In this document: positions 36,104 to 53,601 of the stretch, piece after piece | How the letters are laid out: each line of letters begins with the position of its first letter | Numbering within the stretch: position 1 is the stretch's first letter | Assembly: GCA_050287085.1 (NCBI GenBank) | Contig: JBNKBE010000002.1 | Span: forward strand, 320,001 to 384,000 | Source: Polyangiaceae bacterium | GTDB lineage: Bacteria; Myxococcota_A; Polyangia; Polyangiales; Polyangiaceae | Length of the DNA: 64,000 nucleotides | Direction of reading: 5' to 3' | Translations under genes and position numbers: made by a program | The notes under the pieces: generated by a model | Databases searched by the model: none | The model's input: the letters and a program-made list of their open reading frames with translations, nothing else | Told to the model about the DNA's origin: nothing

Positions 36104-36132
36104 CGCAGGAAAGCAGTGGCCTCGCAACCTCC

Positions 36133-36870
36133 CTATGAGCCGAGGGCCGCCTGTAGCAGGTCGCTAACTTGTTCAGGGGTCTCGAGTATTGGATTGTGTC
36201 CCGCTCTGGGGACACGTGAGAAGCGCCCCCTCGCGAGACGCTTGGCGAACGGTTCGAGAAGAGTGCCGAATTTGTCGTCCAATTCGCCCGCCACCAGGTG
36301 GATAGGTAGCCGCAGCGAGCAGGCGCGTTCGGCCATTACCGGCATCCGTCCAAGAGATAACACGCGAAGCGCGTGCGCGAGCGCTCTCGGTTCGTGGGAC
36401 GTTCGTACTGCACGCTGCCGTGCGAGTACTTCCTGGGGCAGTCGCTGCTGGCTTGTGAACAGTGGCTGCCGTTCCCAATCTGCGAAGAATGCGCTGGCTC
36501 CGCGCTGCTCGAGGCGAGCGGCGAGCGCATCGTCCTGTTCTGCGCGCGCCCTTCTGGCGGCTGCGTCTTCCAGGCCAGGGTGTCCGCCGATGAGGGTGGC
36601 GCTCGTGAAACGCTCGGGAGCGGCCAATAGCAGACCGAGGCCCACGCGCGCGCCCAGAGAATAGCCGAGGAGATGAGCCTGCATCACGCCCCGCTGTCGC
36701 AGCCAAGCGAGGATACGCTCGACCTCAGCTTGGAAAGAAGTGGGCCGTTCGGCAGCGGCCCGCCCGTGCCCGTACAATACGGGGGCGATCAGCTCGCGTT
36801 TCCCTATTGCCAGCGCGTCGAACTGGGAAGCGTTGCCGCCAAAGCCGTGTAGCGCGACGAGGGGGAGCAT
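36133..36870 (-). CDS. menH: SHCHC synthase (alpha/beta hydrolase)
   Basis: LHGF, GYSLGAR, AGELDDKF, AGHN; men cluster context. Confidence 0.88.
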   Translation of the reverse strand: MLPLVALHGFGGNASQFDALAIGKRELIAPVLYGHGRAAAERPTSFQAEVERILAWLRQRGVMQAHLLGYSLGARVGLGLLLAAPERFTSATLIGGHPGLEDAAARRARAEQDDALAARLEQRGASAFFADWERQPLFTSQQRLPQEVLARQRAVRTSHEPRALAHALRVLSLGRMPVMAERACSLRLPIHLVAGELDDKFGTLLEPFAKRLARGRFSRVPRAGHNPILETPEQVSDLLQAALGS

Positions 36871-36877
36871 GTCCGAA

Positions 36878-38662
36878 CTACTCCCTGGTCAGCTCGTATT
36901 CTTGATGTAGGCGTGGCGGTGAGTACCCTTCGAGTGCCGTGAGCTGAGCACTGAGGGCGCGCACTAATGCCTCATACATGAGATAGGCGCCGTCGGGTGG
37001 CAGACATACTTCCAGCAGGGTGGGAGAGGGCTTCGCGTAGAACGCGCTCAGCGCTTGCTTGAGTTGGCCGTGATCGTCGCAGCGGGCGACTTTGAGCCCG
37101 AAGGCCGCGGCCACATCACGGGCGGCCGCCGAATGCGGCGTGCTCCAGCGTTCAAAGTGTACCGAGTCGCGCAGACTTCGCATTGGTAGGTGGGCAAAGA
37201 TTTGTCCTCCACCATTGTTGAGCACGACGATGCACAGCGGCAGGTCGGTGTTGGTCAGCAATTGCAGCGAGCCTGCGTCGTGCAGCAAGGACACATCCCC
37301 AAGCATCAGCACGCCCTGGCCCACGTGGTTCATCTGAGCTCCGATGCTGCCCGCGACCAAGCCGTCTATGCCGTTGAGCCCACGCTGGGAGCAACACGTG
37401 TAGACTTCATCGCGCGTTGCGGTATCGAGAATGCGGATGGATAGGCTGTTACCAATGGTCAGTGTCGTATCGTGCTGCACAGCGGATAGCACCGTCGCGA
37501 CTGCGCTCAGCTCGTCCCAAGGCCTGCCGCTGTCGAGGCGCGCGTCGATGAGCGAGCGCGCCAGGCGGTCGATCGTGGAGACGTGAGACGACCAGCCATC
37601 AGCGCGCTCTCCTGGTTCTGGCGCACCGAGCTGCCTCAACACCTGGGCGGCATCGGCTCGAACGAACCAGCGAGCGGAACTGTGCGGCGCGGGCCACGTG
37701 TTTTGGGCGACCACGGCGACCGGAACGTCAGCGGTGAGGCGAGCCCAGGCGCCGGAAGTGGGCGCTTCACCGAGTTGCAAGATGAAGTCCGGGGTGATGT
37801 CGGCGATCCCACAGCGAGCGACGAGATCGAACGTGCGGAAGCGCTCTGGGACGCCCATCGCGTTGCTGGCGGGTTCGGCCACTACGGGCAGGTGCCAGGC
37901 TGCGGCAAATTCGCTTACCGCTGTCGCGCTAACAGCGCAGTATGGAGCCGCCGGACCCACGACGAGAACCGGGCGCTGAGCGTTGATGAGAGCGGTCCGG
38001 AGTGGTGCCAGAGCGCTTGAAGAGACACTCGCAACACCGGTGATCACGCTCGGTGTCTCGGCGAAACTCGATTCTACTTCTTCCCGAGCGGACACCTCTA
38101 GAGGCTTTCGCGCTCGAAAGTTGAGATGCACCGGTCCCGGGTGGGGGCCGCGCGCGAGATGGAACGCTTGAGCGCACTTGCGCGAAAGTGCTCGCATCGC
38201 CGCCGGGGTCTGTTCCGCAGTACCCAATTCGAAGAACGCTCGTACGTGGTCGCCAAAGAGCTTGAGCTGATCGACCGTCTGCGGAGCCCGGCAAGCTTGT
38301 AGCTCCAGGGGGCGATCGGCGCTGATGATCAGCATCGGAATGCCCGCCTCAGAGGCTTCCAAAATTGCGGGGAAATAGTGGGCAGGTGCGCTGCCTGAGG
38401 TGCAAATTAGCACTGCCGGACGACCCGAGATGCGCGCACGACCGAGTGCGAAGAAAGCGGCGCTGCGTTCATCGATGACGGTGTAGATCTGCGCGCGGTC
38501 CCCCGCGGATTCGAGCGCGAGTACCAACGGCGTGGAGCGTGAACCCGGACTGATCACAAACTCGCACGCGCCGGAGGAGAGTAGGCTGTCGATCACTCGG
38601 CGCGCCCAATGGGCTTGAGCGCGTTCGTGGCGGCGATCGTTTGCGTCTGAGGGCGTCTTCAT
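36878..38662 (-). CDS. menD: SEPHCHC synthase (ThDP-dependent)
   Basis: SPGSRSTPL, DERSAAFFALG, CTSGSA, SADRP, GPVHLN, RGLNGIDG, GDVSLLHD, NNGGGQIF. Confidence 0.96.
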   Translation of the reverse strand: MKTPSDANDRRHERAQAHWARRVIDSLLSSGACEFVISPGSRSTPLVLALESAGDRAQIYTVIDERSAAFFALGRARISGRPAVLICTSGSAPAHYFPAILEASEAGIPMLIISADRPLELQACRAPQTVDQLKLFGDHVRAFFELGTAEQTPAAMRALSRKCAQAFHLARGPHPGPVHLNFRARKPLEVSAREEVESSFAETPSVITGVASVSSSALAPLRTALINAQRPVLVVGPAAPYCAVSATAVSEFAAAWHLPVVAEPASNAMGVPERFRTFDLVARCGIADITPDFILQLGEAPTSGAWARLTADVPVAVVAQNTWPAPHSSARWFVRADAAQVLRQLGAPEPGERADGWSSHVSTIDRLARSLIDARLDSGRPWDELSAVATVLSAVQHDTTLTIGNSLSIRILDTATRDEVYTCCSQRGLNGIDGLVAGSIGAQMNHVGQGVLMLGDVSLLHDAGSLQLLTNTDLPLCIVVLNNGGGQIFAHLPMRSLRDSVHFERWSTPHSAAARDVAAAFGLKVARCDDHGQLKQALSAFYAKPSPTLLEVCLPPDGAYLMYEALVRALSAQLTALEGYSPPRLHQEYELTRE

Positions 38663-40053
38663 TCTTGGACGCGGGTACGCAGCGAGCTGCGCATGCTTCG
38701 TAGTTTGAGCTCGGTTTCTTGGTACTCGGCTCCTGCGATGGAACCCCGCACGATTCCGGCTCCGGCAAATAGCGTCGCGGAGCAGTTCGCCACAAGACCT
38801 GAGCGAAGCGCAACCTTGAACTCTCCGTCACCGTCCGCGTCAAACCAGCCTACCGGGCCTGAGTACCAACCGCGATCCATGTTCTCGTGCTCGGCTATCC
38901 ACTTGACCGCTTCGCTTCTCGGCACGCCGCCGACCGCTGGGGTGGGGTGCAGGGCTTGCACCAAGTCTAGAACATGATGAGCTCCGCTCAAGGTACCGGT
39001 GACGGGCGTCAGCAAGTGGAGCAGATGTCGTAGTTCACGGACGACGGGTTGCTGGGGATAGTCCAAGGTTGCGCAATAGGGCTCAAGCCCGGAGATGATG
39101 GCTTCGCGAACCGGCGCGTGCTCTGCATGCTCTTTGGGACTACGTAGCTGTTCAGCGGCGTAGTCTTTGGCGTCGATACGAAATGTGCCGGCAAGCGCTT
39201 CGGACCTGACAGTGTGGCCTAGCTTCTGGATCAGTGTTTCCGGCGTGGCGCCAAGGAACGTGCTCTCGCCGCGCTTGAAGGCAAATGTGGTCGACTCAGA
39301 GTCCTGCGACCGAAGGGCGCCTAAGCTGAGAACCGGATCGACGCTGCGATCAAAGCGGATCCTGCTGGCCCGAGCCGCCACGACTTTGGTCACCTTGTTT
39401 GCGGCGATCGCGACCAGGATGTCGTTTACCTGGTCACAGTAGGTGCGACCGCCATCGCTACTGGGGGGCGCCGTGAGCATGAGCGAAGCGTCGTCAGGCA
39501 GTGGCGCGCCTTGAGGCCCGTCGAGTGTTTGGCTCTGCAGCAGCGTGCGGAAGTCCAGCGCCGCCGCAAGCTGCTTTCGGAACTCACCGTCCGCGGCCCG
39601 CGGATCGCCTTCGAGCAGTACGCCCAGACGCGCGGTGTTGCCCAGGCGATGATAGTGTAGCCGTGGCAGGACGAATGACGCAGCACCGAAGCGACTCCAC
39701 TCCTGCGCCCAGACGCGATCTTGAAACGCAAAGCCTCCGTAGGCTCTCGCGGGAAGCGGCACGGTGCCATCGGTGCTGACGACATTGCATTCGGCAAGCA
39801 CCGCCTGGAAGCCGTCACGGACTTGCTCGAAGCGCCCTTCGCCTTCGGCGTTGAAGGTGGCGGCCACGCCCGCCGCCAGGGATACCTCATCAGGACGGGG
39901 GCTGTAGAGCGCGCTGACCTCAAACTGAACCGACAGCGCCGCTAGCTGGTCAAATGAAAGACTGGGTGCTGCCATCGACAGGTGAAGTCGTGGCGCTGCA
40001 TGAGTCCGACACTGTGATAGGAGGTCGGCGATGTCATCTCGGGTCGCGTGCAT
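38659..40053 (-). CDS. menF: Isochorismate synthase
   Basis: KVVAAR, FLGATPE, EALAGT, LHPTPAVGG, RGWYSGPVGW, FAGAGIV, ETELK. Confidence 0.92.
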   Translation of the reverse strand: MHATRDDIADLLSQCRTHAAPRLHLSMAAPSLSFDQLAALSVQFEVSALYSPRPDEVSLAAGVAATFNAEGEGRFEQVRDGFQAVLAECNVVSTDGTVPLPARAYGGFAFQDRVWAQEWSRFGAASFVLPRLHYHRLGNTARLGVLLEGDPRAADGEFRKQLAAALDFRTLLQSQTLDGPQGAPLPDDASLMLTAPPSSDGGRTYCDQVNDILVAIAANKVTKVVAARASRIRFDRSVDPVLSLGALRSQDSESTTFAFKRGESTFLGATPETLIQKLGHTVRSEALAGTFRIDAKDYAAEQLRSPKEHAEHAPVREAIISGLEPYCATLDYPQQPVVRELRHLLHLLTPVTGTLSGAHHVLDLVQALHPTPAVGGVPRSEAVKWIAEHENMDRGWYSGPVGWFDADGDGEFKVALRSGLVANCSATLFAGAGIVRGSIAGAEYQETELKLRSMRSSLRTRVQE

Positions 40054-40074
40054 GACAACGAACGGGCATCAGCC

Positions 40075-40800
40075 CTAGGTGCCCTTGGTTGCAACGTAGA
40101 GGTGGCAGACGCCGAGCGCTAGTGTGTGACAGCCTTCGACACTGAGGCCAGCCTCTTGCATCATTTCACAAAACACCTCAGGTGCCGGGAACGCCGCAAT
40201 GGACTGCGGCAGATACTTGTACTCTCGCTCTCCCGATAGCCACGCGCCGAGCTGAGGGACTACACGGTGCATGTGAAAACGGGCCAGACCCTGGAACCAA
40301 CCGCTGCGGGGTTCTCCGAGTTCCAGGATACACGCCCGCGCGCCAGGACGCAGCACGCGTGCCATCTCTCGGAGAGCGAGCAGGCGATCGGGCACATTGC
40401 GGATGCCAAAGGCCATGGTGATACCGTCGAAGCTATCAGCTTCGAATTGAAGGGCCTGCGCGTCGCCCTCGACCAGTTCGATACGGGCCTCCAGCTTGGC
40501 CGCCGTGATCTTCCGCCGGCCAACGTCGAGCATGTTGCGAGAAGGATCAAGCCCGATCACATGCGAGTCAGGGAGCGTATTCGCCAATTGCAGGGCGAGA
40601 TCTGCTGTGCCCGTTGCTAGGTCCAGCAGACGTGCTGACGCGGGCGCCTGCAGGGCCGCTACGGTTCGCCGACGCCAGCCCTGGTCCACACCCAGACTGA
40701 TGATACGATTGAGAAGATCGTAGCGTTCCGCAATGCGGTCGAACATTTCGCCAGAGCCGTCTTTGGGCGTGTCGGTCGTTCCGTCGTGCTGTTCAGTCAT
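40075..40800 (-). CDS. menG: Demethylmenaquinone methyltransferase (UbiE/MenG)
   Basis: MFDRIAERYDLLN, LDLATGTAD, FGIRNV, EMARVLRPG, YKYLPQSI. Confidence 0.93.
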   Translation of the reverse strand: MTEQHDGTTDTPKDGSGEMFDRIAERYDLLNRIISLGVDQGWRRRTVAALQAPASARLLDLATGTADLALQLANTLPDSHVIGLDPSRNMLDVGRRKITAAKLEARIELVEGDAQALQFEADSFDGITMAFGIRNVPDRLLALREMARVLRPGARACILELGEPRSGWFQGLARFHMHRVVPQLGAWLSGEREYKYLPQSIAAFPAPEVFCEMMQEAGLSVEGCHTLALGVCHLYVATKGT

Positions 40801-41325: not shown

Positions 41326-43503
41326 TCAGGGTCGGTTCTTAGGGGGGCCGCTGCGTGGCGTTCGTGTCGCCGCTGCCTTGCGCGCGGCGCTATCGCGCGC
41401 ACGTGCGCGGCTCGGCGCCTTGCTCTGAGATGGCTTGCGTGTTGAAGCCGTGCGCGAGTTGGCTCTGTCAGGACCTGATGACGCGCGGGCTCTCGGACCC
41501 TCGGGAGTGGCTTCCACCGAGGCGACCAGTTTCTCCTGTGCCGCCAAGGCGGCCTTCTTGGCTTTTTCAGTCTCGCCCAGCATTTCGAGCAGGAATCGGC
41601 TGACAATGGTGGGGCGGGGCTTTCCCCATTTCATCCGAGCCTTGCTAAGCGAAAGGGTGAGTTCGTCCTGAGCGCGCGTTACCCCGACGTAGGCAAGGCG
41701 ACGTTCTTCCGCTATCGCGCTGCCGCCCTGTAGCAAAGAGCGTTGGTGGGGGAGCAATCCTTCCTCCATTCCCACCATGTAGACGCGTGGGAACTCAAGC
41801 CCTTTTGCGCTGTGGAGCGTCATGAGCGTGACCGCATGTTCGTTGCGCTTGCCTTTGTCGTCGCGCTGATCCTCACGTCCTGCAAGCGTGCTTTCTTCCA
41901 GGAAGCCAAGCAGCGTCGGCTCTGTGCTCTTTTCCTCGTAGATGGCAAGCGAGTTGACGACTTCCTCGACGGCTCCCAGCCGCGTCTCGACCTCCTGTGC
42001 GGTCTTGTATACGCGCTCGAGCTCCTTCTTGTACTGCACCTCTGCAAGCAAGTTGCGAACGAGGTCGACGAGCGATTCTTTTCCGAAGCGAGCGCGGTAG
42101 CGGAGGACCAGTTGCCGAAATGACTCGATGCGTTGTCCAGCAGCGTCCGCGATATCTCCGTTTTCCGGTGCGAGGTGTAGTGTCTGCCACAGCGGCACGC
42201 CCTCCTTGACCGCGGCTTCCAATAGCGTTTGCACGGTTCCGGTCCCGATTCCGCGGGGAGGGGTGTTGATGATGCGCAGTAGCGCGACCTCATCGCTCGG
42301 ATGCGCTAGCACCTTCAGGTAGGCCATGACGTCTCGCACCTCCTTGCGGTCGAAGAAGGACATGCCTCCAACGATGACGTAAGGGATCTTCTTCCGTCTC
42401 AGCTCCACCTCGAACGCACGGGGTTGTTCGTTGGTGCGGAAGAGAATCGCTATGTCGCTCGGGTTGGTGCGTTCACTCGATTCACGGTTGACCAAACGAT
42501 CGATCTCCGAAACGATGGCTTCCGCTTCCCCCTGTTCGTCGTCGAAGCGGCAGATCCGCGGTGGCGAGCCACCCTTCCGGGCAGCGCGCAAGACCTTGTC
42601 GTGACGAGTTGTGTTGTGGGCGATCAGGGTGTTGGCGAGCTTGAGAATTGACTCGCGGGAACGGTAGTTGTCCTCGAGTCGGACCACGGTGGCATCCGGC
42701 CAGTCGCGGCTGAAGCTCAAGATGTGTTCCACCTCGGCGCCGCGCCAACCGTAGATGCTTTGGTCGTCGTCTCCCACCACGCAGATGTTGCGATGTCGTT
42801 CGGCCAATGCCTTGACAATCTTGTACTGAAGGCCGTTGGTGTCTTGATATTCGTCAATCAGCAGGTGGTCGAAACGCGACGACTCGGCGAAGCGTACTTC
42901 GGGGAAGTGGTCGAAGAGCTCTTCCGTACACAGCAGGATGTCGTCAAAGTCGACCGCACCGACCGCCTTGAGGGCAGCCTGATAGCGTTCGTAGGCAGCT
43001 GCAGCGAGCAGCTGCTTGTCGTCACACGCGAGCTCTCTGGCTTGTGGCGGACGAATCGCCTGAGACTTCCAGGCACCGATCTGGTGCATTAGGTCCGAGG
43101 GGCGCAGCTTCTCGTGGCCGACGCGAATGTCGCGCAACGCGTTTCGTGCGAGACTGTCCTGATCACCACTGTCATAGATCGGGAAGGTCTTCGGGTAGCC
43201 CAACTTGTCGATATGACGGCGCAGAATCCGGACGCACAGAGAGTGGAAGGTTGAGATCTCCGGCGATTCCTGGCGCGGGCGTCGCCGACCTAGCAGCTGC
43301 GTCGTTCGCTGCTTCATCTCCTTGGCAGCCTTGTTGGTGAACGTCACGGCCAAGATACGACTTGGCTTGATGCCGGTCTTGATGAGCTGGACGATGCGGA
43401 AGGTGATGACGCGAGTCTTTCCGGATCCGGCGCCCGCTAGCACCAAGAGAGGACCAGAAAGAGTTGCGACAGCCTTCTGTTGATGGGGGTTTAGGCCTGA
43501 CAC
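41326..43503 (-). CDS. UvrD/Rep/PcrA SF1 DNA helicase
   Basis: LAGAGSGKT, TFTNKAA, STFHS, IDEYQD, VGDDDQSIY, NYRS, HSAKGLEF, EERRLAYVGVTRA. Confidence 0.95.
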   Translation of the reverse strand: MSGLNPHQQKAVATLSGPLLVLAGAGSGKTRVITFRIVQLIKTGIKPSRILAVTFTNKAAKEMKQRTTQLLGRRRPRQESPEISTFHSLCVRILRRHIDKLGYPKTFPIYDSGDQDSLARNALRDIRVGHEKLRPSDLMHQIGAWKSQAIRPPQARELACDDKQLLAAAAYERYQAALKAVGAVDFDDILLCTEELFDHFPEVRFAESSRFDHLLIDEYQDTNGLQYKIVKALAERHRNICVVGDDDQSIYGWRGAEVEHILSFSRDWPDATVVRLEDNYRSRESILKLANTLIAHNTTRHDKVLRAARKGGSPPRICRFDDEQGEAEAIVSEIDRLVNRESSERTNPSDIAILFRTNEQPRAFEVELRRKKIPYVIVGGMSFFDRKEVRDVMAYLKVLAHPSDEVALLRIINTPPRGIGTGTVQTLLEAAVKEGVPLWQTLHLAPENGDIADAAGQRIESFRQLVLRYRARFGKESLVDLVRNLLAEVQYKKELERVYKTAQEVETRLGAVEEVVNSLAIYEEKSTEPTLLGFLEESTLAGREDQRDDKGKRNEHAVTLMTLHSAKGLEFPRVYMVGMEEGLLPHQRSLLQGGSAIAEERRLAYVGVTRAQDELTLSLSKARMKWGKPRPTIVSRFLLEMLGETEKAKKAALAAQEKLVASVEATPEGPRARASSGPDRANSRTASTRKPSQSKAPSRARARDSAARKAAATRTPRSGPPKNRP

Positions 43504-43516
43504 GCGGTGGCTTTCC

Positions 43517-44023
43517 TCAGCTCAAAGCGACTTGGAAGGGCGCTTCCACGAAGGTCTTTGCTGCGGTGTCCCAGATGAATAGCTTGTGTGCCGTAACCGT
43601 TCCTTGATCCACCGCTGTTACCAGATACGCGAGTTCATAAGCCGGGTCCGTCATTCCTCCATTGGTCATGCTCGCGGCGTCTTCGTCGCTGAAGTATGCC
43701 CCACAGTCGAGGTGTGAGTGGAAGAAGACTTTGACCGGTGTGCTGTCGAGTTCGCCCCGTGCGATCGCTTTTTCAAACTTGATCGAGTTGATCTTGAAGT
43801 AGTCCCGACCCGTGCGTGGATGTCCTTCCGGATCGGCTTGGTGATACTTGTTGGCTAGGTTCTCGACCTCCACCGCGCGGTCGCAGAGGTGCGGCTGGTC
43901 GGCAGGGCCGGTAAGGTAGCCGCAGGCCTCTTCTCCGCGTTGGTAGGCGGCGGTTGCTGCGTGCACTACGACATCCATAGCAGCGCTCGAGATCAGTAGG
44001 TTGCCGCGGGTCCATTCGCTCAT
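43517..44023 (-). CDS. JAB/MPN+ (Mov34, Mec-like) metalloprotease
   Basis: EEACG and FHSHLDCGAYFSDED (JAMM motif HxH-x7-S-x2-D); GAGG ribosome-binding site. Confidence 0.9.
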   Translation of the reverse strand: MSEWTRGNLLISSAAMDVVVHAATAAYQRGEEACGYLTGPADQPHLCDRAVEVENLANKYHQADPEGHPRTGRDYFKINSIKFEKAIARGELDSTPVKVFFHSHLDCGAYFSDEDAASMTNGGMTDPAYELAYLVTAVDQGTVTAHKLFIWDTAAKTFVEAPFQVALS

Positions 44024-44132: not shown

Positions 44133-44579
44133 TCAATCGTTTTTGGGTTCGGATGAAGGTCTAGGAGCGCAGGCTGCCGCAGTCGGCTTGAGGAGCTCTC
44201 GCAGCGACGCTAGAGCCTCGAGCGCCGCCGTTGCAAACACCCAGGCGGCGGGGTGCAAGACGACCCCGTCCACTGCGGCACCGCTCAGCGGTGCGGGAAA
44301 TGAAGCCAGGTCTGACGTACTTCTTGTTCGAAGCGGAGCCGGGGCCTGCTGGCGCGCCCCAGGGGGCCCCACGCGGTTGGCCGCATCACCGAGCCGCTTT
44401 ATCGTCACGAGGCCCTGCGCCGTCTCGAGCTGAACCGTTCCAACGCCGGCCCGAAAGAGGTATTCCGCCGCGACGGGCTGCCGGGTCACGACGCGTCCCT
44501 GGGCAATCTTGTCTTGACCCGCCGCGCCGACCTCGGGCAGCTGTCGCTGCCGCGTGTAGCGATCTTCGAAGGGCAGCAT
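44133..44579 (-). CDS. Degenerate mini-ThiF/MoeB protein (148 aa) lacking the ATP-binding loop
   Basis: EDRYTRQRQLPEVGAAGQDKI and AAEYLFRAGVG; no GxGxxG and no CxxC. TGATG overlap with the Ubl gene. Confidence 0.7.
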   Translation of the reverse strand: MLPFEDRYTRQRQLPEVGAAGQDKIAQGRVVTRQPVAAEYLFRAGVGTVQLETAQGLVTIKRLGDAANRVGPPGARQQAPAPLRTRSTSDLASFPAPLSGAAVDGVVLHPAAWVFATAALEALASLRELLKPTAAACAPRPSSEPKND

Positions 44580-44851
44580 CAGCCGCCTGCGATGGCCGGC
44601 ACTACGCTCAGTTCGTCCCCGTCTTTCAATTCGGTATCCAGACCGTCGAGAAAGCGGATGTCTTCCTCTCCGAGGTAGAGATTGACGAAACGACGGACTC
44701 CCTTGTCGTCGACCAAACGCTCTTTGATGCCGGGGTACGCCGTTTCGAGATTCTCGATGAGCTCCGCGATGTTGGCGCCTTCGACGGCTACGGTTTCTTC
44801 TCCGCCGGTGAGGGTACGCAGGGGAGTCGGAACACGAACGGTGATGGGCAT
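44579..44851 (-). CDS. MoaD/ThiS/CysO-like ubiquitin-fold protein
   Basis: ITVRVPTPLR, RRFVNLYL, DGDELSVVPAIAGG with a C-terminal di-Gly. Confidence 0.93.
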   Translation of the reverse strand: MPITVRVPTPLRTLTGGEETVAVEGANIAELIENLETAYPGIKERLVDDKGVRRFVNLYLGEEDIRFLDGLDTELKDGDELSVVPAIAGG

Positions 44852-44922
44852 GATGGATCCTTTGGGCTTGTTGGTCGGTGTGCTGTGTAGGTTGGGTGAT
44901 GGTTCGAGCGCGAGCAGGTTGC

Positions 44923-45684
44923 TCAGAAATTGCGCTCGACGCAGATTTGCCGCGTGTAGCGTGGCTCTTCAATACTCAAAATGCTCCGCTCGGAACCACA
45001 CAGTGTGCAGGTCTCACGTCCTCTCAGGCTGGTCGCCCGCACGCGTCCGCTGTGGCCGTCCAGGCGAATGCAGGTTCCGTAGCGTGGTTGCGCTGAGAGG
45101 ATGGCAAGCGCAAGATCGGCCATTGCGGCGCCTACGAAACCCGCCACTGGGCCCATGATTCCGTGGCTACTACAGTTGGCTCCCTCATCCGTTGGGACGT
45201 CCTCGAACACGCAGCGGTAGCAGGGCCCGCCCCGCGGACCTGCCGCTAGCGCGGTGCCAACGAAGCCCAGAGCCGCGCCGTGAATGACAGGGCGTCCGGC
45301 GAGAAAAGCGGCGTCGGCAGCGAGAAACTTGGTGGCATAGTTGTCCGCCCCTTCAATGACGAGATCGACATCGCTTGCCAGTTGCAATGCGCTATCGGGG
45401 AGCAGTCGCCCACTCAGCGGGATGATGTCGGTGGACGCAGCCCCGAGGGTGCGGAGTTTTCTCGCGGCGGCTTCTATCTTGGGGGTGCCGACGTCCGCGT
45501 CGTCAAACAAGATCTGCCGCCCGAGGTTGCTCTCATCCACGAGGTCGTCGTCCAGCAACACCAGCTTGGCTATTGCCGTCTGTGCGAGCACCCGTGCCAG
45601 CGGACATCCCAAGCCGCCCATGCCAACGATGAGCACGCGGGGCTTCTGGCGGAGGCCATTGGACGGTGGCGGCGTGGAGGGCAT
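44923..45684 (-). CDS. HesA/MoeB/ThiF (E1-like) adenylyltransferase
   Basis: VLIVGMGGLG, DDDLVDESNLGRQ, EGADN, PCYRC, ANCSSHG (catalytic Cys position), CTLC; no rhodanese domain. Confidence 0.92.
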   Translation of the reverse strand: MPSTPPPSNGLRQKPRVLIVGMGGLGCPLARVLAQTAIAKLVLLDDDLVDESNLGRQILFDDADVGTPKIEAAARKLRTLGAASTDIIPLSGRLLPDSALQLASDVDLVIEGADNYATKFLAADAAFLAGRPVIHGAALGFVGTALAAGPRGGPCYRCVFEDVPTDEGANCSSHGIMGPVAGFVGAAMADLALAILSAQPRYGTCIRLDGHSGRVRATSLRGRETCTLCGSERSILSIEEPRYTRQICVERNF

Positions 45685-45718: not shown

Positions 45719-46180
45719 CTAGATCATGTACACGTAGCGCTCGGGAACTCTTTTTCCGAGTCCAGCTTGCGCGGCTCGTTCGCATAGCGTTTGCACGCTC
45801 ATGCTATTGAGACCGTTGCGCAGCAAGGCGCCGAGCTCCTGCAGGGCGTTGTCCGTGACGCTCTTGGCGTCGGGGATCCGATGACGCTCTGTCGCTTCGG
45901 CGTCTTCTGGCCCAACGAGACAGGGGCCCTCGGTGACTTCGAGTATGTCACCCAGTAGGAGCTCACTGGGCGTCCGCACCAGACTGTAGCCACCTTGAGG
46001 TCCGCGTTTTGAGGCCACAAACCCTGCGCGCTTGAGATCCTGGAAGATCTGTTCGAGAAAGCGCGCCGGGATCTCCTGTCGCTCCGCGATGTCTTTCAGC
46101 TGGGTAGGGCGGCCCTCGTTGTAGAAGGCAATGTCGAAGAGGGCCCGTACGGCATATCGACCTTTATTCGACAGCTTCAT
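45719..46180 (-). CDS. Rrf2-family transcriptional regulator (CymR-like)
   Basis: MKLSNKGRYAVRAL, IAERQEIP..FLEQI, SKRGPQGGY; lacks the IscR Cys triad; ends YVYMI. Confidence 0.92.
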   Translation of the reverse strand: MKLSNKGRYAVRALFDIAFYNEGRPTQLKDIAERQEIPARFLEQIFQDLKRAGFVASKRGPQGGYSLVRTPSELLLGDILEVTEGPCLVGPEDAEATERHRIPDAKSVTDNALQELGALLRNGLNSMSVQTLCERAAQAGLGKRVPERYVYMI

Positions 46181-46227: not shown

Positions 46228-46258
46228 TTTATGGGTTACCTTATCGGATTTGTCAAGA
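46228..46258 (-). promoter_or_regulatory. Putative sigma70 promoter overlapped by an imperfect palindrome (candidate Rrf2 operator)
   Basis: Minus strand TTGACA (46256-46251), 17 nt, CATAAA; TCTTGACAAATCCGATAAGG dyad. The TGA of the -35 box is the upstream gene's stop codon. Confidence 0.6.
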
Positions 46259-47947
46259 ACCGGAGTCGGCGCGAGCCGGCGACGAGAGGCGAGAGGCCGA
46301 AGCTTTGAGCTCGAGGGTGTGTTTCTCCGCGCGCTGGAGTCGGCCCCCTGACTGCAGGAGTCGGGCTCGTGCTCGGGCAAACTTCTCCTCTTGCCAGAAC
46401 ATCAGGCAGCCATTGCATCCCAGGCCGCAACAGCCCTCTAGCCCTAACTTTGGAGCGGCCCGCCGCCCCTGAAGGCGGGTCGTTGAGTTCGAGGTCGCGT
46501 CGCGTTGGAGCGATTGGAGCGGGATCAAGCCGAGCTCCGCTTGCTGCGCCTGGACGCCGCGGTGGAGGTGCTGTTGCTGCTCGGCGCTCAGCACGGAGCG
46601 CTTGCGAACGAGACTCTGGGCGGGCAGACGCTCACGCAGCGAGTCCATATCCTCATTGTGAAACGCAGTCAGCGGGATGCGGACAGCGCGCCCTCCCCCC
46701 GCTGAGAGCTTGGGAAGCGTCTCGCCGGTATCGGCGCAGCGGTATTCGTAGAGGCGAAGACGGACCACGTCCAAACTGTCCGGCGGTAGGAATTCGAAGA
46801 TGTCCCCGGGTAGGACGCGATTGCGCAGCTCCACGACGACGCTATCGCCTTCCCACGCCCTGACAAAGCCCAGGAACTCAAAGGCGGACAGTGATTGACC
46901 CTGATCGTAGTCGTGTCCCAGGTGTGACAAGCGGCCTGAGTAAAAGCCGAGGCTGTACCCGCGAGCTTTGGTTGTTTCGAGCTCCGCCATGAAAGGGCGG
47001 TGGTCGAAGCCGGCCGGATCACGGTAGTAGCTGTCGATGGCTTGTCGATAGGCGCGCGCCACCACGCCCGCGTAGTACTCGTTCTTGTTGCGTCCTTCGA
47101 CCTTGAGTGAGTCAATGCCCAGGGCCAGGTATTCGTCGAGCTTCGGCATCAGACATAGGTCACGGGAATTCAGAATATATGCGCCTCGCTCGTCCTCTTC
47201 GATCGGGTACAGCTCACCGGGGCGAAACTCCTCTTCGAGGAAGAACTCAAACTCGCTCTTGTTTTCGTCCGTGAGCGTGATGGTGCCTTCGCTGCCGTCA
47301 CGATGTCGCACCTTCAAGTTGTACTTCCAGCGACAACTGTGTGCGCAACCGCCCTGGTTGCTGCCGCGTTCAGCCATGTAGTTGGAGAGCAGACAACGCC
47401 CTGAATAGGTCATGCATTGCGCGCCGTGGACGAACGTCTCCAAGCGAATATCGGGACAACGCTCTCGGATATCGCGCAGCTCGTCGAAGCTGACCTCGCG
47501 CGCAAGCACGCATAAAGCGGCGCCTTGCTTCTGCCAGTAGTCGACGGTTAGCCAGGAGGCGACGTTGGCCTGCGTGGAGATATGGCGTTCCCAATGCGGG
47601 GCATGGTCCTTCAGGTATTGGAATACGCCCGGATCGCTGACGATGACGCCATCGGGTGCTAGGTCGCGCAAGGTCTCCAAGAATCGCGGAAGCTTCTCGA
47701 TGTCGCGGTTGTGCGTGAAGAGATTGAGCGTCAAGTAGATCTTCTTGCCGTGGTCGCGCACGAAGCGGATCCCCTCGACAAGGTCGGACAGCGGAAACGC
47801 CGACTGCGTTCGCAAGGAAAGATCGGGTGTACCCGCATACACCGCATCGGCCCCATACAGGATGGCCGTCTTCAGGCGGCTGAGCGAGCCGGCCGGCATC
47901 AATAGCTCGGCGCGTTTGGTTGGTGCATGGCTGGACACCTCGTTCAT
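46253..47947 (-). CDS. trhP: U32-family prephenate-dependent tRNA hydroxylase (TrhP/YegQ-like) with a C-terminal extension
   Basis: ELLMPAGS, GADAVY, ETFVHGAQCMTYSGRCLLS, NQGGCAHSCRWKY (Fe-S cysteines), NSRDLC, SLKVEGR; divergent from cmoAB. Confidence 0.85.
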   Translation of the reverse strand: MNEVSSHAPTKRAELLMPAGSLSRLKTAILYGADAVYAGTPDLSLRTQSAFPLSDLVEGIRFVRDHGKKIYLTLNLFTHNRDIEKLPRFLETLRDLAPDGVIVSDPGVFQYLKDHAPHWERHISTQANVASWLTVDYWQKQGAALCVLAREVSFDELRDIRERCPDIRLETFVHGAQCMTYSGRCLLSNYMAERGSNQGGCAHSCRWKYNLKVRHRDGSEGTITLTDENKSEFEFFLEEEFRPGELYPIEEDERGAYILNSRDLCLMPKLDEYLALGIDSLKVEGRNKNEYYAGVVARAYRQAIDSYYRDPAGFDHRPFMAELETTKARGYSLGFYSGRLSHLGHDYDQGQSLSAFEFLGFVRAWEGDSVVVELRNRVLPGDIFEFLPPDSLDVVRLRLYEYRCADTGETLPKLSAGGGRAVRIPLTAFHNEDMDSLRERLPAQSLVRKRSVLSAEQQQHLHRGVQAQQAELGLIPLQSLQRDATSNSTTRLQGRRAAPKLGLEGCCGLGCNGCLMFWQEEKFARARARLLQSGGRLQRAEKHTLELKASASRLSSPARADSGS

Positions 47948-48076
47948 GCGAGCGCCGTACCACAGAATTGGCCGGCGGTCTTCTCGGCGCGGGCCATCCA
48001 GAAAAGGAACGTCGGCACTGCAGCCTCTTGACTTCCCTGCTCTCAAGGGCGATTTCGGTCCTCTTCCTGTTTCTGG

Positions 48077-48814
48077 GTGGTGCCCGTGCGAGACCAATTG
48101 TTTGCCCAGCCACGAAGTCAGCGCAGCGACTTCAACTTCGATGAACCGGTGGCTGCGGTTTTTGACGACATGATTCGGCGGTCCTTGCCGGGGTACGACT
48201 GTGTGTTGAGCATGCTCGGAGTCATCGCCTCTCGCTTTGCGCAAGCCGGCACCTGTGTTTACGATCTCGGCTGTTCGCTCGGGAGCGCGACGCTCGCCCT
48301 TCACAACGCCGTCGGAGCGCGTCCAGTACAGGTTGTCGGGGTGGACAAGAGCCCGGCAATGGCGGAACGCGCGCGGCGGCGGATCGCGCAGGAGACCGGG
48401 AATGCTCAAATCGAGGTGCTCTGCCAGGATGTGTGCGAAACTGTCTTCCGTCCGTCATCGCTGATTGTGTTGAACTTCACGCTCCAGTTCCTACCCAAGG
48501 CTGAGCGCCGCGGGGTCTTGGAGCGCGCGCTTGCGGCGCTCGTCCCAGGAGGGGCGTTGGTGCTCAGTGAGAAATTGCGCTTCGACGACTACCGCGAGGG
48601 CGCGTTGATGGAGGATCTCCACGACGAGTACCGACGCTCGAACGGCTACTCCCAGTTAGAGATCAGTCAGAAACGAACAGCCCTGGAGAACGTGCTGGTC
48701 ACGGAGAGCGAGCAGGAGCACGTCGTTCGCTTGGAGGAGGTAGGCTTCTCTCGGATCCATACATGGTTTCGTTGCGCCAACTTCGTTTCAATCCTCGCGA
48801 CCAAAGACGCGTGA
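48077..48814 (+). CDS. cmoA: Carboxy-S-adenosyl-L-methionine synthase
   Basis: DFNFDEPVAAVFDDMIRRSLPGY, YDLGCSLG, LNFTLQF, LSEK, NGYSQLEISQKRTALENV. Confidence 0.95.
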   Translation: MVPVRDQLFAQPRSQRSDFNFDEPVAAVFDDMIRRSLPGYDCVLSMLGVIASRFAQAGTCVYDLGCSLGSATLALHNAVGARPVQVVGVDKSPAMAERARRRIAQETGNAQIEVLCQDVCETVFRPSSLIVLNFTLQFLPKAERRGVLERALAALVPGGALVLSEKLRFDDYREGALMEDLHDEYRRSNGYSQLEISQKRTALENVLVTESEQEHVVRLEEVGFSRIHTWFRCANFVSILATKDA

Positions 48815-48956
48815 GCACGGGCGGCACCTTCCCAGGGCTGCGCTAGCCGCCGAGCCGCTGCGCCGCAGCTTGAGCCCCTGTGTTGCCGCCGAAATGGCCG
48901 TGTCGCCGCCTAGCTGCCTCGCCACCGCCGAATCACAGCGTCGCCGCCTAATCACT

Positions 48957-49943
48957 ATGTTGCCGCCGATCTCCACCGAACTGGTCCGTGTTCTCACCGC
49001 TCGCGCGCTGCCCCAGGCGCTGAGCGCCATCACTGCCCTTGAGCTTGCCGTGGAGGCCGAGTTTGCGGCATTGGCTCATGGTCATCGCGACCGCTGGCTG
49101 CAGGCGATTGCAGAGCTCCAGATCTTAGGGGGAGCGGCCCACGTGCAGCTCGACAGCGACGTGCCGCGCTTCGGGCAAGAGCGCTACAGCGATGAAGAGC
49201 TCGCGCGTCTGCGGCTTGCTCTCGAGCGACTTGGACCCTGGCGAAAGGGACCGTTTCAAATCGGGCCTCTGCAGATCGATGCTGAGTGGCGCTCCGACTT
49301 CAAGTGGGCTCGCTTCGCCGATTCGCTTGCGTGGTCTGGCGCGCGCGTGCTCGACGTGGGCAGCGGGAATGGCTACGCCTGCTTGCGAGCTATCGGCGCG
49401 GGCGCCGCCGAGGTGCTGGGGATCGATCCGACGTGGCTCTATGTCATGCAGTTTCAAGCGCTTGCCTGTTTTCTCCCGAGGATCCCTGTTGGCGTTGTGC
49501 CGTTGCCCCTGGAGCGGCTTCCGGCGTCGGTCTGCGACTTTGATATCGTGATGTCGATGGGCGTTCTCTATCATCGACGCTCGCCCCTGGATCACCTGAG
49601 CGAGCTCAAGCAAAGACTGCGAAGGGGAGGGACCTTGGTGCTCGAATCCCTCGTCGTCGAGGGTGCCAAAGGTTATGCGTTGGTCCCGGATGATCGCTAT
49701 GCGGCCATGAAGAACGTCTGGTTCTTGCCCTCGATTCCGACCCTTACGGCCTGGCTGGAGCGTGTTGGCTTCATCGGCGTGCAGTGCATCGCGGAGGCCA
49801 CCACCACCGCTCTCGAGCAGCGGGCGACACCGTGGATGCCTTCGCAGTCACTCGTCGATTTTCTGGACCCCAATGACAGCTCTCGAACGATCGAAGGACA
49901 TCCGGCGCCCAGGCGAGCGATATGGCTTGCCCGGCGCCCATAG
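48957..49943 (+). CDS. cmoB: tRNA U34 carboxymethyltransferase
   Basis: PWRKGPF, IDAEWRSDFKW, VLDVGSGNGY, GIDP, SMGVLYHRRSP, RYAAMKNVWFLPS, TIEGHPAPRRA. Confidence 0.95.
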   Translation: MLPPISTELVRVLTARALPQALSAITALELAVEAEFAALAHGHRDRWLQAIAELQILGGAAHVQLDSDVPRFGQERYSDEELARLRLALERLGPWRKGPFQIGPLQIDAEWRSDFKWARFADSLAWSGARVLDVGSGNGYACLRAIGAGAAEVLGIDPTWLYVMQFQALACFLPRIPVGVVPLPLERLPASVCDFDIVMSMGVLYHRRSPLDHLSELKQRLRRGGTLVLESLVVEGAKGYALVPDDRYAAMKNVWFLPSIPTLTAWLERVGFIGVQCIAEATTTALEQRATPWMPSQSLVDFLDPNDSSRTIEGHPAPRRAIWLARRP

Positions 49944-50095: not shown

Positions 50096-51835
50096 CTAGT
50101 AGAGGCGCTCGAGCTGCGGCAGATACAGCTCGGTTACCCGGCGCCGTTTGATCTTGAGGCTTGGCGTCAGCAGCCCGTTTTCGACGGTGAAGTCTTCACG
50201 CGTGATGGCGAGCTTCTTGGGCGCCTCGTAGCTTCGGAAAGTGCAGGCCTGTTTGGCCTCGCTGAGCAGCTGTTCGAGCAGCTGCGGACATTCGTTCCAG
50301 TTGCTAGGCAGCGACAGCTGTCTCTTCTTGGCCCATTCCAAGACGGTGTCTTCGTCCGGCACAACGAGCAGTACGTTGTACGGCCGATTGTGACCAAACA
50401 GCATCGCGTTGCTAATAAACGGAGACAACTTGATCTGTTCCTCCAGACTCGCGGGCGCCACGTACTTGCCGTTCTCGAGCTTATACTGCTCTTTGATACG
50501 ACCCGTTACAGTGAGAAATCCGTCGGCATCCAGATGCCCTAGATCTCCAGTGCGCAGGCCTCCATCAGGGGTCATTACGGCCGCGGTCTCCTCAGGTAGG
50601 TTGTGATACCCTTGCATTACATTGGGGCCGTAGACGATGATTTCTCCCTCGTCGGGGGCTTCGCTCTTGCTCTTGTCGATGACGACACGCACCCCTGGGA
50701 TCGGACGTCCGACGGTTCCAACCTTCTTCTGACCTGGACAGTTCGTCGCTACAACGGGGCTGGTTTCAGTTAAGCCGTATCCCTCATAGAGATCTATGCC
50801 GAGGGCGTCGATGAATTCAGCGACCTCGCGGCTGAGCGCTGCGCTGCCGCTCACCAGGGTTTCGAGTTGTCCGCCAAAGCGGGCGCGCACTTTGGCGAAG
50901 AGCAGGCGATCGGCCAGGGTGAGCACGGCCTCGTCGATCAGTCCGAGCGAGTCGCCTCGGCGTTTTGCCGTGGCCAGTGCAATGCCACGAGCGAACAATC
51001 GTTGAATGAGCTTGGGGCGCGCTTCCATCTGACGGTGAACGCGATCGTAGATGCGGTTGAATATGCGCGGCACCGCCACCAGAACCTTGGGCTGGACGGA
51101 TGCGAGGTTGTCGACGATATTGGGAATGGCATCATTGATCGCCATCGAACCGCCATTGCTCACCAAGAAGTGGAGCTCCGCGATTTGTCCGTAGGCGTGT
51201 GCCCACGGCAGGAACGACAGAGAACGGGCGGGCCCGATGTGATAGAGCCCCTCGTATTCGGCGACGTTGCTGCAGATGTTGTGATGGGTCAGCAGTACGC
51301 CCTTTGGGTTGCCTGTTGTGCCCGAGGTGTAGATGATGCAGGCCAGAGCGTCACCCTTGGGCCTCGACAGCGACGCGTCAGCGTCTGGGGCTGCGTATTC
51401 GAAGGCATCTTCGTGGGAGGCGGGGAGGCCTATGCCGATTACCTTCTGCAAGGTCGGCAGCTCGCCGCGCAGAGCCTGCAGCTGCTGATACACAGCGTCG
51501 GTTCCGGCGATGACCACTTTGGCCCCCGAGTCCGCCAGGATGAAGCGCCATTCTTCCTGGGGTTGGGCTACGTACATGGGGACGAAGGCGGCACCCCGAC
51601 CGAAGGTGGCGTAGGCAGCGACGGCCCAGGGCACGCAATTGTCGGCCACGATCGCAACTCTGTCGCCCTCGGCCACGCCGTGATGGGCCAGCAGCTGCCT
51701 AAACGCCGTGACCTGTTGGCTGACATCGCCGTAGCTGATCCACCGCCAACCGCCGGCTCCTTTGATTCCGAATAGCGGCGATGACGCATACTGATTGCGG
51801 CTGCTCTCGAACAAGTCGACTAGGCTTTCGTGCAC
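50096..51835 (-). CDS. Long-chain fatty acid-CoA ligase (AMP-binding)
   Basis: IYTSGTTGNPKG, SFLPWAH, YEGYGLTE, RTGDLG, GRIKE...NGKYVAP. Confidence 0.92.
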   Translation of the reverse strand: MHESLVDLFESSRNQYASSPLFGIKGAGGWRWISYGDVSQQVTAFRQLLAHHGVAEGDRVAIVADNCVPWAVAAYATFGRGAAFVPMYVAQPQEEWRFILADSGAKVVIAGTDAVYQQLQALRGELPTLQKVIGIGLPASHEDAFEYAAPDADASLSRPKGDALACIIYTSGTTGNPKGVLLTHHNICSNVAEYEGLYHIGPARSLSFLPWAHAYGQIAELHFLVSNGGSMAINDAIPNIVDNLASVQPKVLVAVPRIFNRIYDRVHRQMEARPKLIQRLFARGIALATAKRRGDSLGLIDEAVLTLADRLLFAKVRARFGGQLETLVSGSAALSREVAEFIDALGIDLYEGYGLTETSPVVATNCPGQKKVGTVGRPIPGVRVVIDKSKSEAPDEGEIIVYGPNVMQGYHNLPEETAAVMTPDGGLRTGDLGHLDADGFLTVTGRIKEQYKLENGKYVAPASLEEQIKLSPFISNAMLFGHNRPYNVLLVVPDEDTVLEWAKKRQLSLPSNWNECPQLLEQLLSEAKQACTFRSYEAPKKLAITREDFTVENGLLTPSLKIKRRRVTELYLPQLERLY

Positions 51836-52131
51836 GCAGGACCCTCTTTTTTGCTTCTTCGTGTGGAGTTGTCGCGGGGGCAGTCGCTGCTGCGTCTCGC
51901 CTCCGTTTCACGCAGTCTAGCGTGGATCCATTCAGGGTGAGGTTTCAAACGCCGAGAGCCGGCCTTGGATGCCGCATAGGGAGCGTGGGCGCTGGCTGCC
52001 GGTTTGGGACGACACGAGGCTTCCCAGGAGCGGGGCCATTTTTGCGTAGATTTGAGGCTCGGATACTCCTAAAGCTCTTGTTTCCCCGGTGCCCTGTGCA
52101 TCAGCCGGCTAGTCTTCCGGGGTCTAAGCCC

Positions 52132-53601
52132 ATGCCCTCCTATTCCGTCGTCACTTTCGGTTGTCAGATGAACATGCACGATTCCGAGCGCATGGCGGAA
52201 GTGATGGCTGCGGCAGGCTACACGTCGGCCCCTGCGCCCCAGGATGCTGATGTCGTGTTGCTGAACACGTGCAGCGTGCGAGAAAAGGCCGAACAGAAGC
52301 TGCGCAGCGAGGTCGGGCGGCTTGGCGTTCTCAAACGGCGAAAGCCCGAGCTCGTTATCGCGGTGGCGGGGTGCGTGGCTCAGCAAGAAGGAGAGGCGCT
52401 GCTTCGCAGCCTGCCACAGATCGACTTGGTGCTGGGGCCCGACAACATTGGTGAGCTTCCCGGTTTGCTTGCGGCGATCGAGGCGGGAGCGCCACCCAGG
52501 GCGCGCACCCAATTCGACTACGAGAGTCCGACTTTTCTCTCGGCGGCTCCCCAAGTCCGCAAGGCCAGTGCGTTCGTGACGACCATGAAAGGCTGCGATG
52601 AGCGTTGCACTTTCTGCATCGTGCCGTTCACTCGTGGCAGTGAGCGCTACCGGCCGTCGGCGGACATCGTCCGCGAGATCGCAACGCTGGTGGCGGGCGG
52701 AACGCAGGAAATCACCTTGCTCGGTCAAACCGTCGATAGCTACCGTGATCCGGATGCGGCGCTGGCTCAAGCCAAGGCCCACGGGGACGGCATTCGCAGG
52801 TGGGGGCGACGCACTCTCGTCCCGGACGATGAGACCGAGTTTCCAGCCCTACTTCGAGCGGTGGCCCGCGAGGTGCCGGACTTGAAACGCCTCCGCTATA
52901 CAAGTCCCCATCCTCGCCACTTGACCCCGGCACTCGTGGCCGCTCACGCGGAGCTCAGCGTACTTGTCCGTCACGTGCACATGCCAGTACAATCCGGCAG
53001 CGACCGCGTGCTCAAGCGGATGGGGCGACGCTACACGCGCCAAGAATACGTGGAGCGTACGGATCTGCTGCGTCGCGCCGTGCCGGGGCTGTCGCTTTCG
53101 ACCGACATCATCGTGGGTTTTCCCGGGGAAAGCGATGAGGACTTCGAGGAGACCCTCGCGCTGGTGCGTGAGCGGGGTTTCATCGGGGTTTTCGCCTTCA
53201 AGTATTCGCCGCGTCCTCATACGGCCGCCCTGAGGCTGGGCGACGACGTGCCGGAAAGCACGAAGTCGGAGCGCTTGGCCCGACTTCTAGAGCTGAGCGA
53301 GGCCATTCGGACCGAGCACTTGGCGGGCCTGGTAGGCGCTGTCGAACCCGTATTGGTTGAAGGGCGCAGCAAGACGGGGGCGTTCACTGGACGTACCGAA
53401 CGCAACGAAATCGTTCATTTTGGGGCGTCGGACGATCCCACAGGCGAGGTGCTCAGCGTGCGCATTGAACGCGCGCTGAAGCACTCCCTGATCGGCAGTT
53501 TGGTGGATGATGAGCGTGCTGTGCCGTATGAAGACGTCGTCCGCAGCGCCGCAAGCAGCACTTCCGCTAGGCGCGTGCTTCCGGTGGTACGAGAGCCCTA
53601 G
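52132..53601 (+). CDS. miaB: tRNA-2-methylthio-N6-dimethylallyladenosine synthase
   Basis: TFGCQMN, NTCSVREKAE, GCVAQ, GCDERCTFC, TSPHP, PVQSGS, TDIIVGFPGE, TRAM domain. Confidence 0.96.
   Translation: MPSYSVVTFGCQMNMHDSERMAEVMAAAGYTSAPAPQDADVVLLNTCSVREKAEQKLRSEVGRLGVLKRRKPELVIAVAGCVAQQEGEALLRSLPQIDLVLGPDNIGELPGLLAAIEAGAPPRARTQFDYESPTFLSAAPQVRKASAFVTTMKGCDERCTFCIVPFTRGSERYRPSADIVREIATLVAGGTQEITLLGQTVDSYRDPDAALAQAKAHGDGIRRWGRRTLVPDDETEFPALLRAVAREVPDLKRLRYTSPHPRHLTPALVAAHAELSVLVRHVHMPVQSGSDRVLKRMGRRYTRQEYVERTDLLRRAVPGLSLSTDIIVGFPGESDEDFEETLALVRERGFIGVFAFKYSPRPHTAALRLGDDVPESTKSERLARLLELSEAIRTEHLAGLVGAVEPVLVEGRSKTGAFTGRTERNEIVHFGASDDPTGEVLSVRIERALKHSLIGSLVDDERAVPYEDVVRSAASSTSARRVLPVVREP

Follow-up and report, generated by a model that had tools for sequence, protein, structure and literature searches.

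A ThiF/MoeB-like protein that lacks the usual N-terminal RYxRQ segment and a 148-residue inactive remnant of the same fold that retains it, both encoded in one operon of a Polyangiaceae bacterium, probably make up a single heterodimeric E1-like adenylyltransferase with one active site. This split E1, consisting of a large and a mini subunit, is conserved across the sampled Polyangia. The operon lies on the reverse strand of the window, by which we mean the whole stretch of 64,000 nucleotides that was analyzed, in a genome (G000) that is 96.8% complete in 160 contigs and that, judged by named homologues and their loci, falls among Polyangiaceae-like myxobacteria. All five operon frames are open, and a helicase gene adjoins them downstream:

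45719..46180, minus strand: Rrf2-family regulator at the head of the operon (PF02082, 105.8 bits; TIGR00738 above cut-off)
44923..45684, minus strand: large catalytic ThiF/MoeB-like subunit, 253 aa (PF00899, 167.9 bits)
44579..44851, minus strand: ubiquitin-like protein (Ubl) of the ThiS/MoaD family, CysO-like by context, 90 aa, C-terminus IAGG (PF02597, 62.3 bits)
44133..44579, minus strand: mini subunit, non-catalytic ThiF remnant, 148 aa (RYTRQ and helices; weak match to the N-terminus of MoeB/ThiF)
43517..44023, minus strand: JAB/MPN peptidase, Mec+-like by context (PF14464, 37.7 bits)
41326..43503, minus strand: UvrD/Rep helicase, adjoining the operon downstream (PF00580, PF13361)

The ATG of the mini gene shares one base with the stop codon of the Ubl gene (TGATG). 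The regulator scores below the cut-offs of the IscR and CymR equivalog models of NCBIfam, and the Ubl reaches 56.6 with the SAMP1 model, for which the cut-off is 60. The helicase gene follows the operon at 5 of 80 related loci and is probably a neighbor outside the functional unit. A scan for promoters and terminators gave no signal exceeding that of shuffled sequence.

The large and mini subunits

The sequence-only reading of this DNA had described a ThiF with GxGGLG, SNLGRQ, both CxxC pairs and the loop cysteine, without the N-terminal RYxRQ and with an in-frame stop upstream, and all of these features were found: GMGGLG at residues 21 to 26, SNLGRQ at 52 to 57, K69, D114, CYRC at 155 to 158, the loop cysteine C171, and CTLC at 226 to 229. 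The protein spans only positions 21 to 229 of the PF00899 profile, with 167.9 bits against a curated cut-off of 28.1. A stop lies in frame 13 codons 5' of the ATG, which leaves an open frame of 266 aa, and no RYxRQ is encoded between this stop and the ATG. Among 106 large homologues, G21, G23, G24, D45, R56, K69, D114, C155, C158, and C226 are invariant (106/106), and C171 is kept in 105. The best matches among PDB sequences are E. coli MoeB and ThiF (1jw9, 1zud, and 1zfn; E 3e-32 to 6e-30); the protein consists of a single ThiF domain, its alignment to E. coli ThiF shows no large inserts, and it misses the equivalog cut-offs for MoeB/ThiF (PRK05690, 141.7 vs 266; TIGR02356, 159.8 vs 275.25). 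An assembly or start-site artefact as the cause of the missing N-terminus was ruled out, since the same shape was found at 118 distinct loci, one of which (L053) is cut by a contig end so that its N-terminus is not visible.

The mini protein likewise agrees with its earlier description: it keeps RYTRQ (residues 7 to 11), LPEVGAAGQ, the AAEYL helix (AAEYLFRAGVG) and a C-terminal helix (110 to 130), and the ATP loop and zinc sites are gone, with GxGGxG, SNLxRQ, and CxxC all absent. Its layout runs from a finger helix through a second helix, a first strand, the AAEYLxRAG helix, and a second strand to a C-terminal dimer helix; approximately 50 extra residues (about 60 to 105; pLDDT 58–69) are peculiar to the window's copy. 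Pfam returned no ThiF match for this protein, and MoeB/ThiF models are matched over their N-terminal 50 residues only, far under cut-off (E 7e-5 to 7e-3).

Nevertheless, a profile built from 31 homologues retrieved 468 clusters at 50% identity (E<=1e-10). The median length of 156 mini homologues, a set that leaves out two fusions, is 100 aa, and GxGGxG, SNLxRQ, and CxxC occur in none of them. Across an alignment of 150 rows, R10 and Q11 are kept in 148 and Y40, G45, and A122 in all 150, while R7, the arginine that opens the motif, is found in only 124. Among PDB sequences, the mini profile hits Uba4, ThiF, and MoeB best (E 1e-7 to 4e-4), and this profile search aligns R10 to Arg11 of ThiF (1zud) and Arg14 of MoeB (1jw9), as had been proposed for the mini arginine; PMC13139853 identifies these two residues as the arginine fingers. 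Matches to SAE1 and NAE1 were non-significant (E 0.18–0.96). Alignment with an intact ThiF and intermediate forms maps the C-terminal helix to the long helix after the loop cysteine. The monomer model reaches pLDDT >90 in the conserved parts (74 residues). The first 13 rows of a wide fold search with mini were all E1-like, the best being a middling match (Z 7.1, rmsd 4.7, 113 aligned), and Foldseek gave nothing at E<=0.001, its top ten rows being ThiF/Uba4. All 39 close pairs compared gave a dN/dS ratio under 1 (0.04–0.86); these pairs are non-independent and do not include the window's mini gene. As far as sequence can tell, the mini proteins are a real family under purifying selection, with a predicted E1-like inactive adenylation fold devoid of ATP motifs.

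Distribution and sulfur-carrier context

Co-occurrence was scored at 160 distinct loci, drawn from regions of 60 genomes picked among the 150 matches listed and from 30 other loci. A ThiF lacking the N-terminal segment (N-less ThiF) is encoded at 118 of these, none of which has an RYxRQ at the usual spacing on the same chain, and an inactive RYxRQ partner lies downstream at 112 of the 118, with lengths of about 95 to about 230 aa across loci. This bears out the complementary loss that the sequence-only reading had claimed, and co-occurrence and dN/dS, two of the checks suggested with that claim, agree in this respect. Of the 6 misses, 2 lie where the fetched stretch ends too early, and the other 4 are genuine (L060/L131, L065, L141, and L142). 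A second RYxRQ gene lies downstream at only 4 of the 42 loci with full-length ThiF, several of which have short flanks, and all 4 cases are intact Nitrospirota ThiFs. Sixteen further loci from across the class, some from genomes that may overlap the earlier set, included 14 N-less ThiFs, 13 of them with a partner (approximately 100–230 aa) and the remaining one cut, as well as one unrelated full-length gene. At the last of the sixteen (L204, G415:C273), the same operon has a full-length RYARQ ThiF, and no second ThiF was detected there. The large and mini genes are adjacent without an intervening Ubl gene at 9 loci. Since two phylum-wide searches could not tell N-less ThiFs from rhodanese-MoeBs, our claims refer to the fetched Myxococcota loci.

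A mini gene was not found genome-wide in three partner-less genomes, G130, G045 (one contig, 100% complete), and G114; the ThiFs of all three are N-less and retain their catalytic motifs, and each genome keeps another full-length MoeB-like gene. The fourth case, L065, comes from an unpublished genome (G413) and was examined at the locus only; this one case and a single row of the tree depend on that genome. In a quick tree, the partner losses occupy two distinct positions within the clade whose other members have a partner. Near the catalytic Asp, the ThiFs of L065, L141, and L142 have changes in common (DRH in place of DNF), and partner-less large subunits show no clear common interface change (0.71–0.88 match).

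A natural fusion of large to mini was found as 4 distinct sequences, which form one 90% cluster, come from several sources, and carry the motif RHDRH. Folded with the large-subunit alignment, its mini part has a pLDDT near or below 50; an alignment including minis was left unused, because the minis landed on the N-terminal domain. When longer mini homologues were searched for, 1 protein came back and the known fusion did not, so that this search is little informative on fusion frequency. Two other composite proteins, a Ubl-mini fusion (P0121, 211 aa, one member) and a mini with approximately 420 extra residues (P0292, 539 aa, two members), may each represent read-through or a gene-calling artefact.

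At 82 well-covered N-less loci, the neighborhood includes the Ubl (76), the JAB peptidase (69), a cysteine synthase (61), and the Rrf2 regulator (48), in the usual order Rrf2, cysK, large ThiF, Ubl, mini, cysM-like, JAB. By analogy, this context appears to be that of a CysO/CysM/Mec-like sulfur carrier and not of ubiquitination. Among related Ubls, 59 of 105 end at GG and the remainder carry extra residues after it, so that trimming may be a second job for the JAB peptidase. An operon-type CysM was not found in the window's genome, where the best match reaches 261 bits vs 495–593 for members; a possible displaced CysK scores 396 bits, and two homologues of cysteine synthase are encoded on a different contig (C3:135560 and C3:74186). 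The same operon without cysteine synthases occurs in several relatives (e.g., L044, L059, L134, L137, L139, and L147).

We also observed large-mini pairs without adjoining Ubl, JAB, and cysteine synthase genes at L021, L024, L029, L123, and L135 (G034, G200, G166, G188, and G099) and, likewise, at L055, L057, L064, and L156. In 5 of 5 tested genomes with such a Ubl-less pair, this query did not retrieve the cognate Ubl; 4 of the 5 were searched with the ThiS family and keep ThiS/MoaD-like genes, and a second ThiF-family gene is present in each of the 5. The pair may therefore not be tied to one carrier or product. In the genome of the window, a full-length MoeB with RYSRH is encoded 13 kb before the window (G000:C2:306830-307534, L001). 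We take its N-terminal part to be rhodanese-like, and this protein is a candidate sulfur donor or alternative partner.

Predicted complex, proposed mechanism, and rival readings

The complex was modeled from large residues 10–253 and mini residues 1–135 with ATP and Mg. It scored 0.92, compared to 0.12 for the best of 3 controls, and different runs share at least 76% of their contacts, with a partner pLDDT of at least 74. Of solved pairs, 116 of 157 attain the score mark, as do 2 of 215 mismatched ones; these counts apply only roughly here. The interface joins mini 5–17, 36–44, and 103–127 to large 28–36, 50–62, and 173–194, with the long C-terminal helices (large 179–190 with mini 112–126) as its core and the RYTRQ helix (mini 5–11) sitting on the SNLGRQ loop (large 50–56). 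The heterodimer anticipated by the sequence-only reading was thus obtained in the model, but solved homodimers of MoeB, ThiF, and Uba4 exist, so that this result may reflect memory of them and speaks for likeness rather than binding. Interface positions are more conserved than other positions in mini (0.64 vs 0.42; 32 and 60 positions) and not so in the large subunit (0.66 vs 0.61), in a test that reuses the alignments given to the model.

In the mechanism that we propose, the large subunit would bind ATP-Mg, zinc, and the Ubl and supply R56, K69, and D114, with roles transferred from MoeB. The mini would be a paralogue reduced to those regions through which one MoeB protomer contacts the other: the RYxRQ and AAEYLxRAG helices and the long helix at the C-terminus. 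It would fill the dimer face and hold Arg10 against the SNLGRQ loop, as in the model, where this residue could contact the ATP phosphates. The resulting Ubl-AMP would be converted to a thiocarboxylate, possibly with the separate rhodanese-MoeB of this genome as donor. In most relatives, the thiocarboxylate would be used by the adjacent CysM-like synthase, and the JAB peptidase would trim the Ubl and release cysteine, following the CysO/CysM/Mec pathway.

The sequence-only reading had called the heterodimer obligate. The model is in line with a heterodimer, whereas its obligate character is partly opposed by the four partner-less N-less loci and by the statement that MoeB and ThiF can do without their arginine fingers and that the Tcd1 exchange R59A cost only 26% (PMC13139853). 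UBA3 is reported to activate NEDD8 on its own (PMC6031683). Mini is expected to give a marked gain in activity or stability; a strict requirement for it is somewhat less likely than not.

It is unlikely that the large subunit acts without mini, as a homodimer or with the rhodanese-MoeB, and that mini is a regulator or cap competing for the dimer face. This would fit the four loci that lost the partner, three of whose genomes were checked whole and found to have another full-length MoeB-like gene, and the full-length RYSRH MoeB with its presumably rhodanese-like N-terminal part in the genome of the window. It would also fit the non-essential MoeB/ThiF finger (PMC13139853). However, a pure cap gives no reason for the retention of R10 and Q11 in nearly all minis, the large-mini fusion would inhibit itself, and no partner accompanies the operon ThiF where this is full-length (L204). 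Less probable again is that the family is a working heterodimer, with selection relaxed on the copy in the window once the cysteine synthases had gone from the operon. The missing operon-type CysM points this way, as do the longest end branch among near relatives (0.82), the ~50 extra low-confidence residues of the window's mini, and a large subunit with the lowest interface-consensus match of 106 (0.67 vs a mean of 0.86) and oddities such as H55G (unique), R140G, and A174H, among others; yet none of the five frames is interrupted, the large subunit is normal at its other conserved positions (0.87 vs a mean of 0.85), and several relatives share the operon without cysteine synthases.

The large ThiF carries a second RYTRQ at residues 242–246 (window 44947–44961, minus strand), identical to the mini motif, with R242 kept in 88 and Y243 in 100 of 106 homologues. 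That this pentapeptide replaces the finger in the same chain or in a homodimer, while mini does something else, is very improbable: the functional arginine is the second of the motif, whose position is unconserved in relatives, as conservation stops after RY; the tail corresponds to the Tyr...Cys C-terminus that is usual in full-length MoeBs; and residues 242–246 are not among the modeled interface residues, although contact with ATP would still be compatible. It is scarcely credible that mini is a pseudogene fragment or chance frame, as might be supposed from the lack of a Pfam ThiF match and from the weak profile-profile match to the large subunit (probability 2.2%), given its 468 clusters, its fixed position at nearly all N-less loci, the dN/dS ratios below 1, and the confident folding of its conserved parts. 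The preferred reading, a heterodimer in which mini completes the active site of the large subunit, is the one followed below.

Relation to known E1 enzymes and possible origin of the pair

The split E1 resembles E. coli MoeB-MoaD and ThiF-ThiS in its adenylation fold, P-loop, SNLxRQ, zinc site, and GG-ending Ubl. MoeB and ThiF are treated as homodimers with two active sites in a 2025 review (PMC12355090), and their finger arginine comes from the neighboring subunit, according to PMC13139853. In contrast to these homodimers, the split E1 has its finger helix and catalytic core on two genes and one possible active site. Like SAE1-UBA2 and NAE1(APPBP1)-UBA3, it places inactive and active adenylation domains on separate chains. 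Unlike them, it has neither cysteine half-domains nor a ubiquitin-fold domain, its five operon genes are assigned to non-E2 families, and its inactive chain has about 100 aa compared to 340–530 aa in SAE1/NAE1. We infer that the likeness to eukaryotic SAE/NAE arose by convergence and not by descent. Canonical E1s are thought to derive from a MoeB-like homodimer that turned into an active-inactive pair.

In BilD, which belongs to type II BilABCD antiviral ubiquitination, Arg9 of the inactive domain completes the single active site, and other known bacterial E1-like proteins are said to be homodimers (PMC10557695). BilD is one chain, with the inactive domain preceding the active one, an 80-aa CYS domain, and an E2 partner, whereas the split E1 consists of two genes or a rare fusion in opposite order, without a CYS insert and in a metabolic context. 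The earlier claim of an undescribed bacterial parallel of eukaryotic E1 architecture is therefore narrowed: the arginine of an inactive domain is known from BilD, where it is fused, and what was not found in print is the two-gene form. The mostly open-access literature searched contained no two-gene E1 that serves a sulfur-carrier pathway in bacteria; Burroughs and colleagues, who surveyed the E1 superfamily in 2009, may mention such a form.

Regarding gene content, the operon resembles the mycobacterial CysO-CysM-Mec+-MoeZR set, in which Ubl, E1-like enzyme, JAB peptidase, and cysteine synthase occur together (PMC3227635), and neighborhood 4c of Iyer et al. 2006 (PMC1779556). However, the E1 of the CysO pathway and of 4c is one gene fused to a rhodanese; the split E1 is without rhodanese, and the window's genome is without an operon-type CysM. 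Yeast Tcd1-Tcd2 is, like the split E1, a ThiF-family heterodimer, in which an inactive paralogue is proposed to give the finger arginine and to stabilize the active chain (PMC13139853), but it is eukaryotic, acts on tRNA, and has two full-length chains. By analogy with these systems, the split E1 appears to work like an inactive-active E1 pair and to belong to the ThiF/MoeB sulfur-carrier activators, not to the ubiquitin-conjugating E1s.

A possible source of the pair is seen in Nitrospirota, where the gene order is cysK, ThiF, thrC-like, Ubl, NIL-like, ThiF, with both ThiFs intact; the thrC-like and NIL-like labels are our assumption from sequence motifs. Two full-length ThiFs lie 2–3 kb apart in 29 of 61 Nitrospirota genomes searched (e.g., L075, L085, L086, and L087), and this intact pair may already be heterodimeric. 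At L076, the gene order is of the Nitrospirota type and the first ThiF copy is N-less. A family of 230-aa partners, considered for its best 120 members, retains RYxRQ in 101 (the others are mostly genes called with a truncated N-terminus) and the last CxxC in 117, with GxGGxG in 2 and SNLxRQ in 0. In the quick tree, N-less ThiFs form one clade (25 rows, SH-aLRT 100), the inactive partners are unplaceable (branch 3.1), and the two Nitrospirota copies group together (91); as the tree ties neither copy to a Nitrospirota copy, the ancestral link rests on gene order.

Taken as a graded series, the forms comprise two intact ThiFs, an N-less ThiF with an inactive partner of 120–260 aa, an N-less ThiF with a remnant of 95 aa, a rare fusion, and rare loss. 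The remnant of approximately 95 residues is the smallest form of an inactive adenylation subunit found. With slightly more doubt than attaches to the strict requirement itself, we propose that a stand-alone inactive subunit of this size is required for a bacterial E1, that it arose by complementary loss from a Nitrospirota-like two-copy operon, independently of SAE/NAE and BilD, with all stages of shrinkage still present in myxobacteria, and that it may serve several carriers or protein tagging. The last point follows from the pair outliving its cognate Ubl in some genomes and CysM in others. The class-wide series makes the step from homodimer to active-inactive pair directly testable with small proteins and lets one ask which parts an inactive subunit has to retain, and whether selection preserves the trans arginine or the dimer face. 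Furthermore, the split E1 explains the truncated look of these ThiFs in annotation, and it offers a likely function for a large family now mostly named "hypothetical."

With respect to the surroundings of the operon, two stretches just upstream (window 46253–49943 and 51781–53601) contain a U32-family gene and frames that resemble CmoA, CmoB, and MiaB, judged by their motifs, which together presumably form a tRNA-modifying gene cluster. On the other side, frames in window 35192–40800 (minus strand) resemble menA, menH, menD, menF, and menG, which we take, again from motifs, to be a menaquinone cluster.
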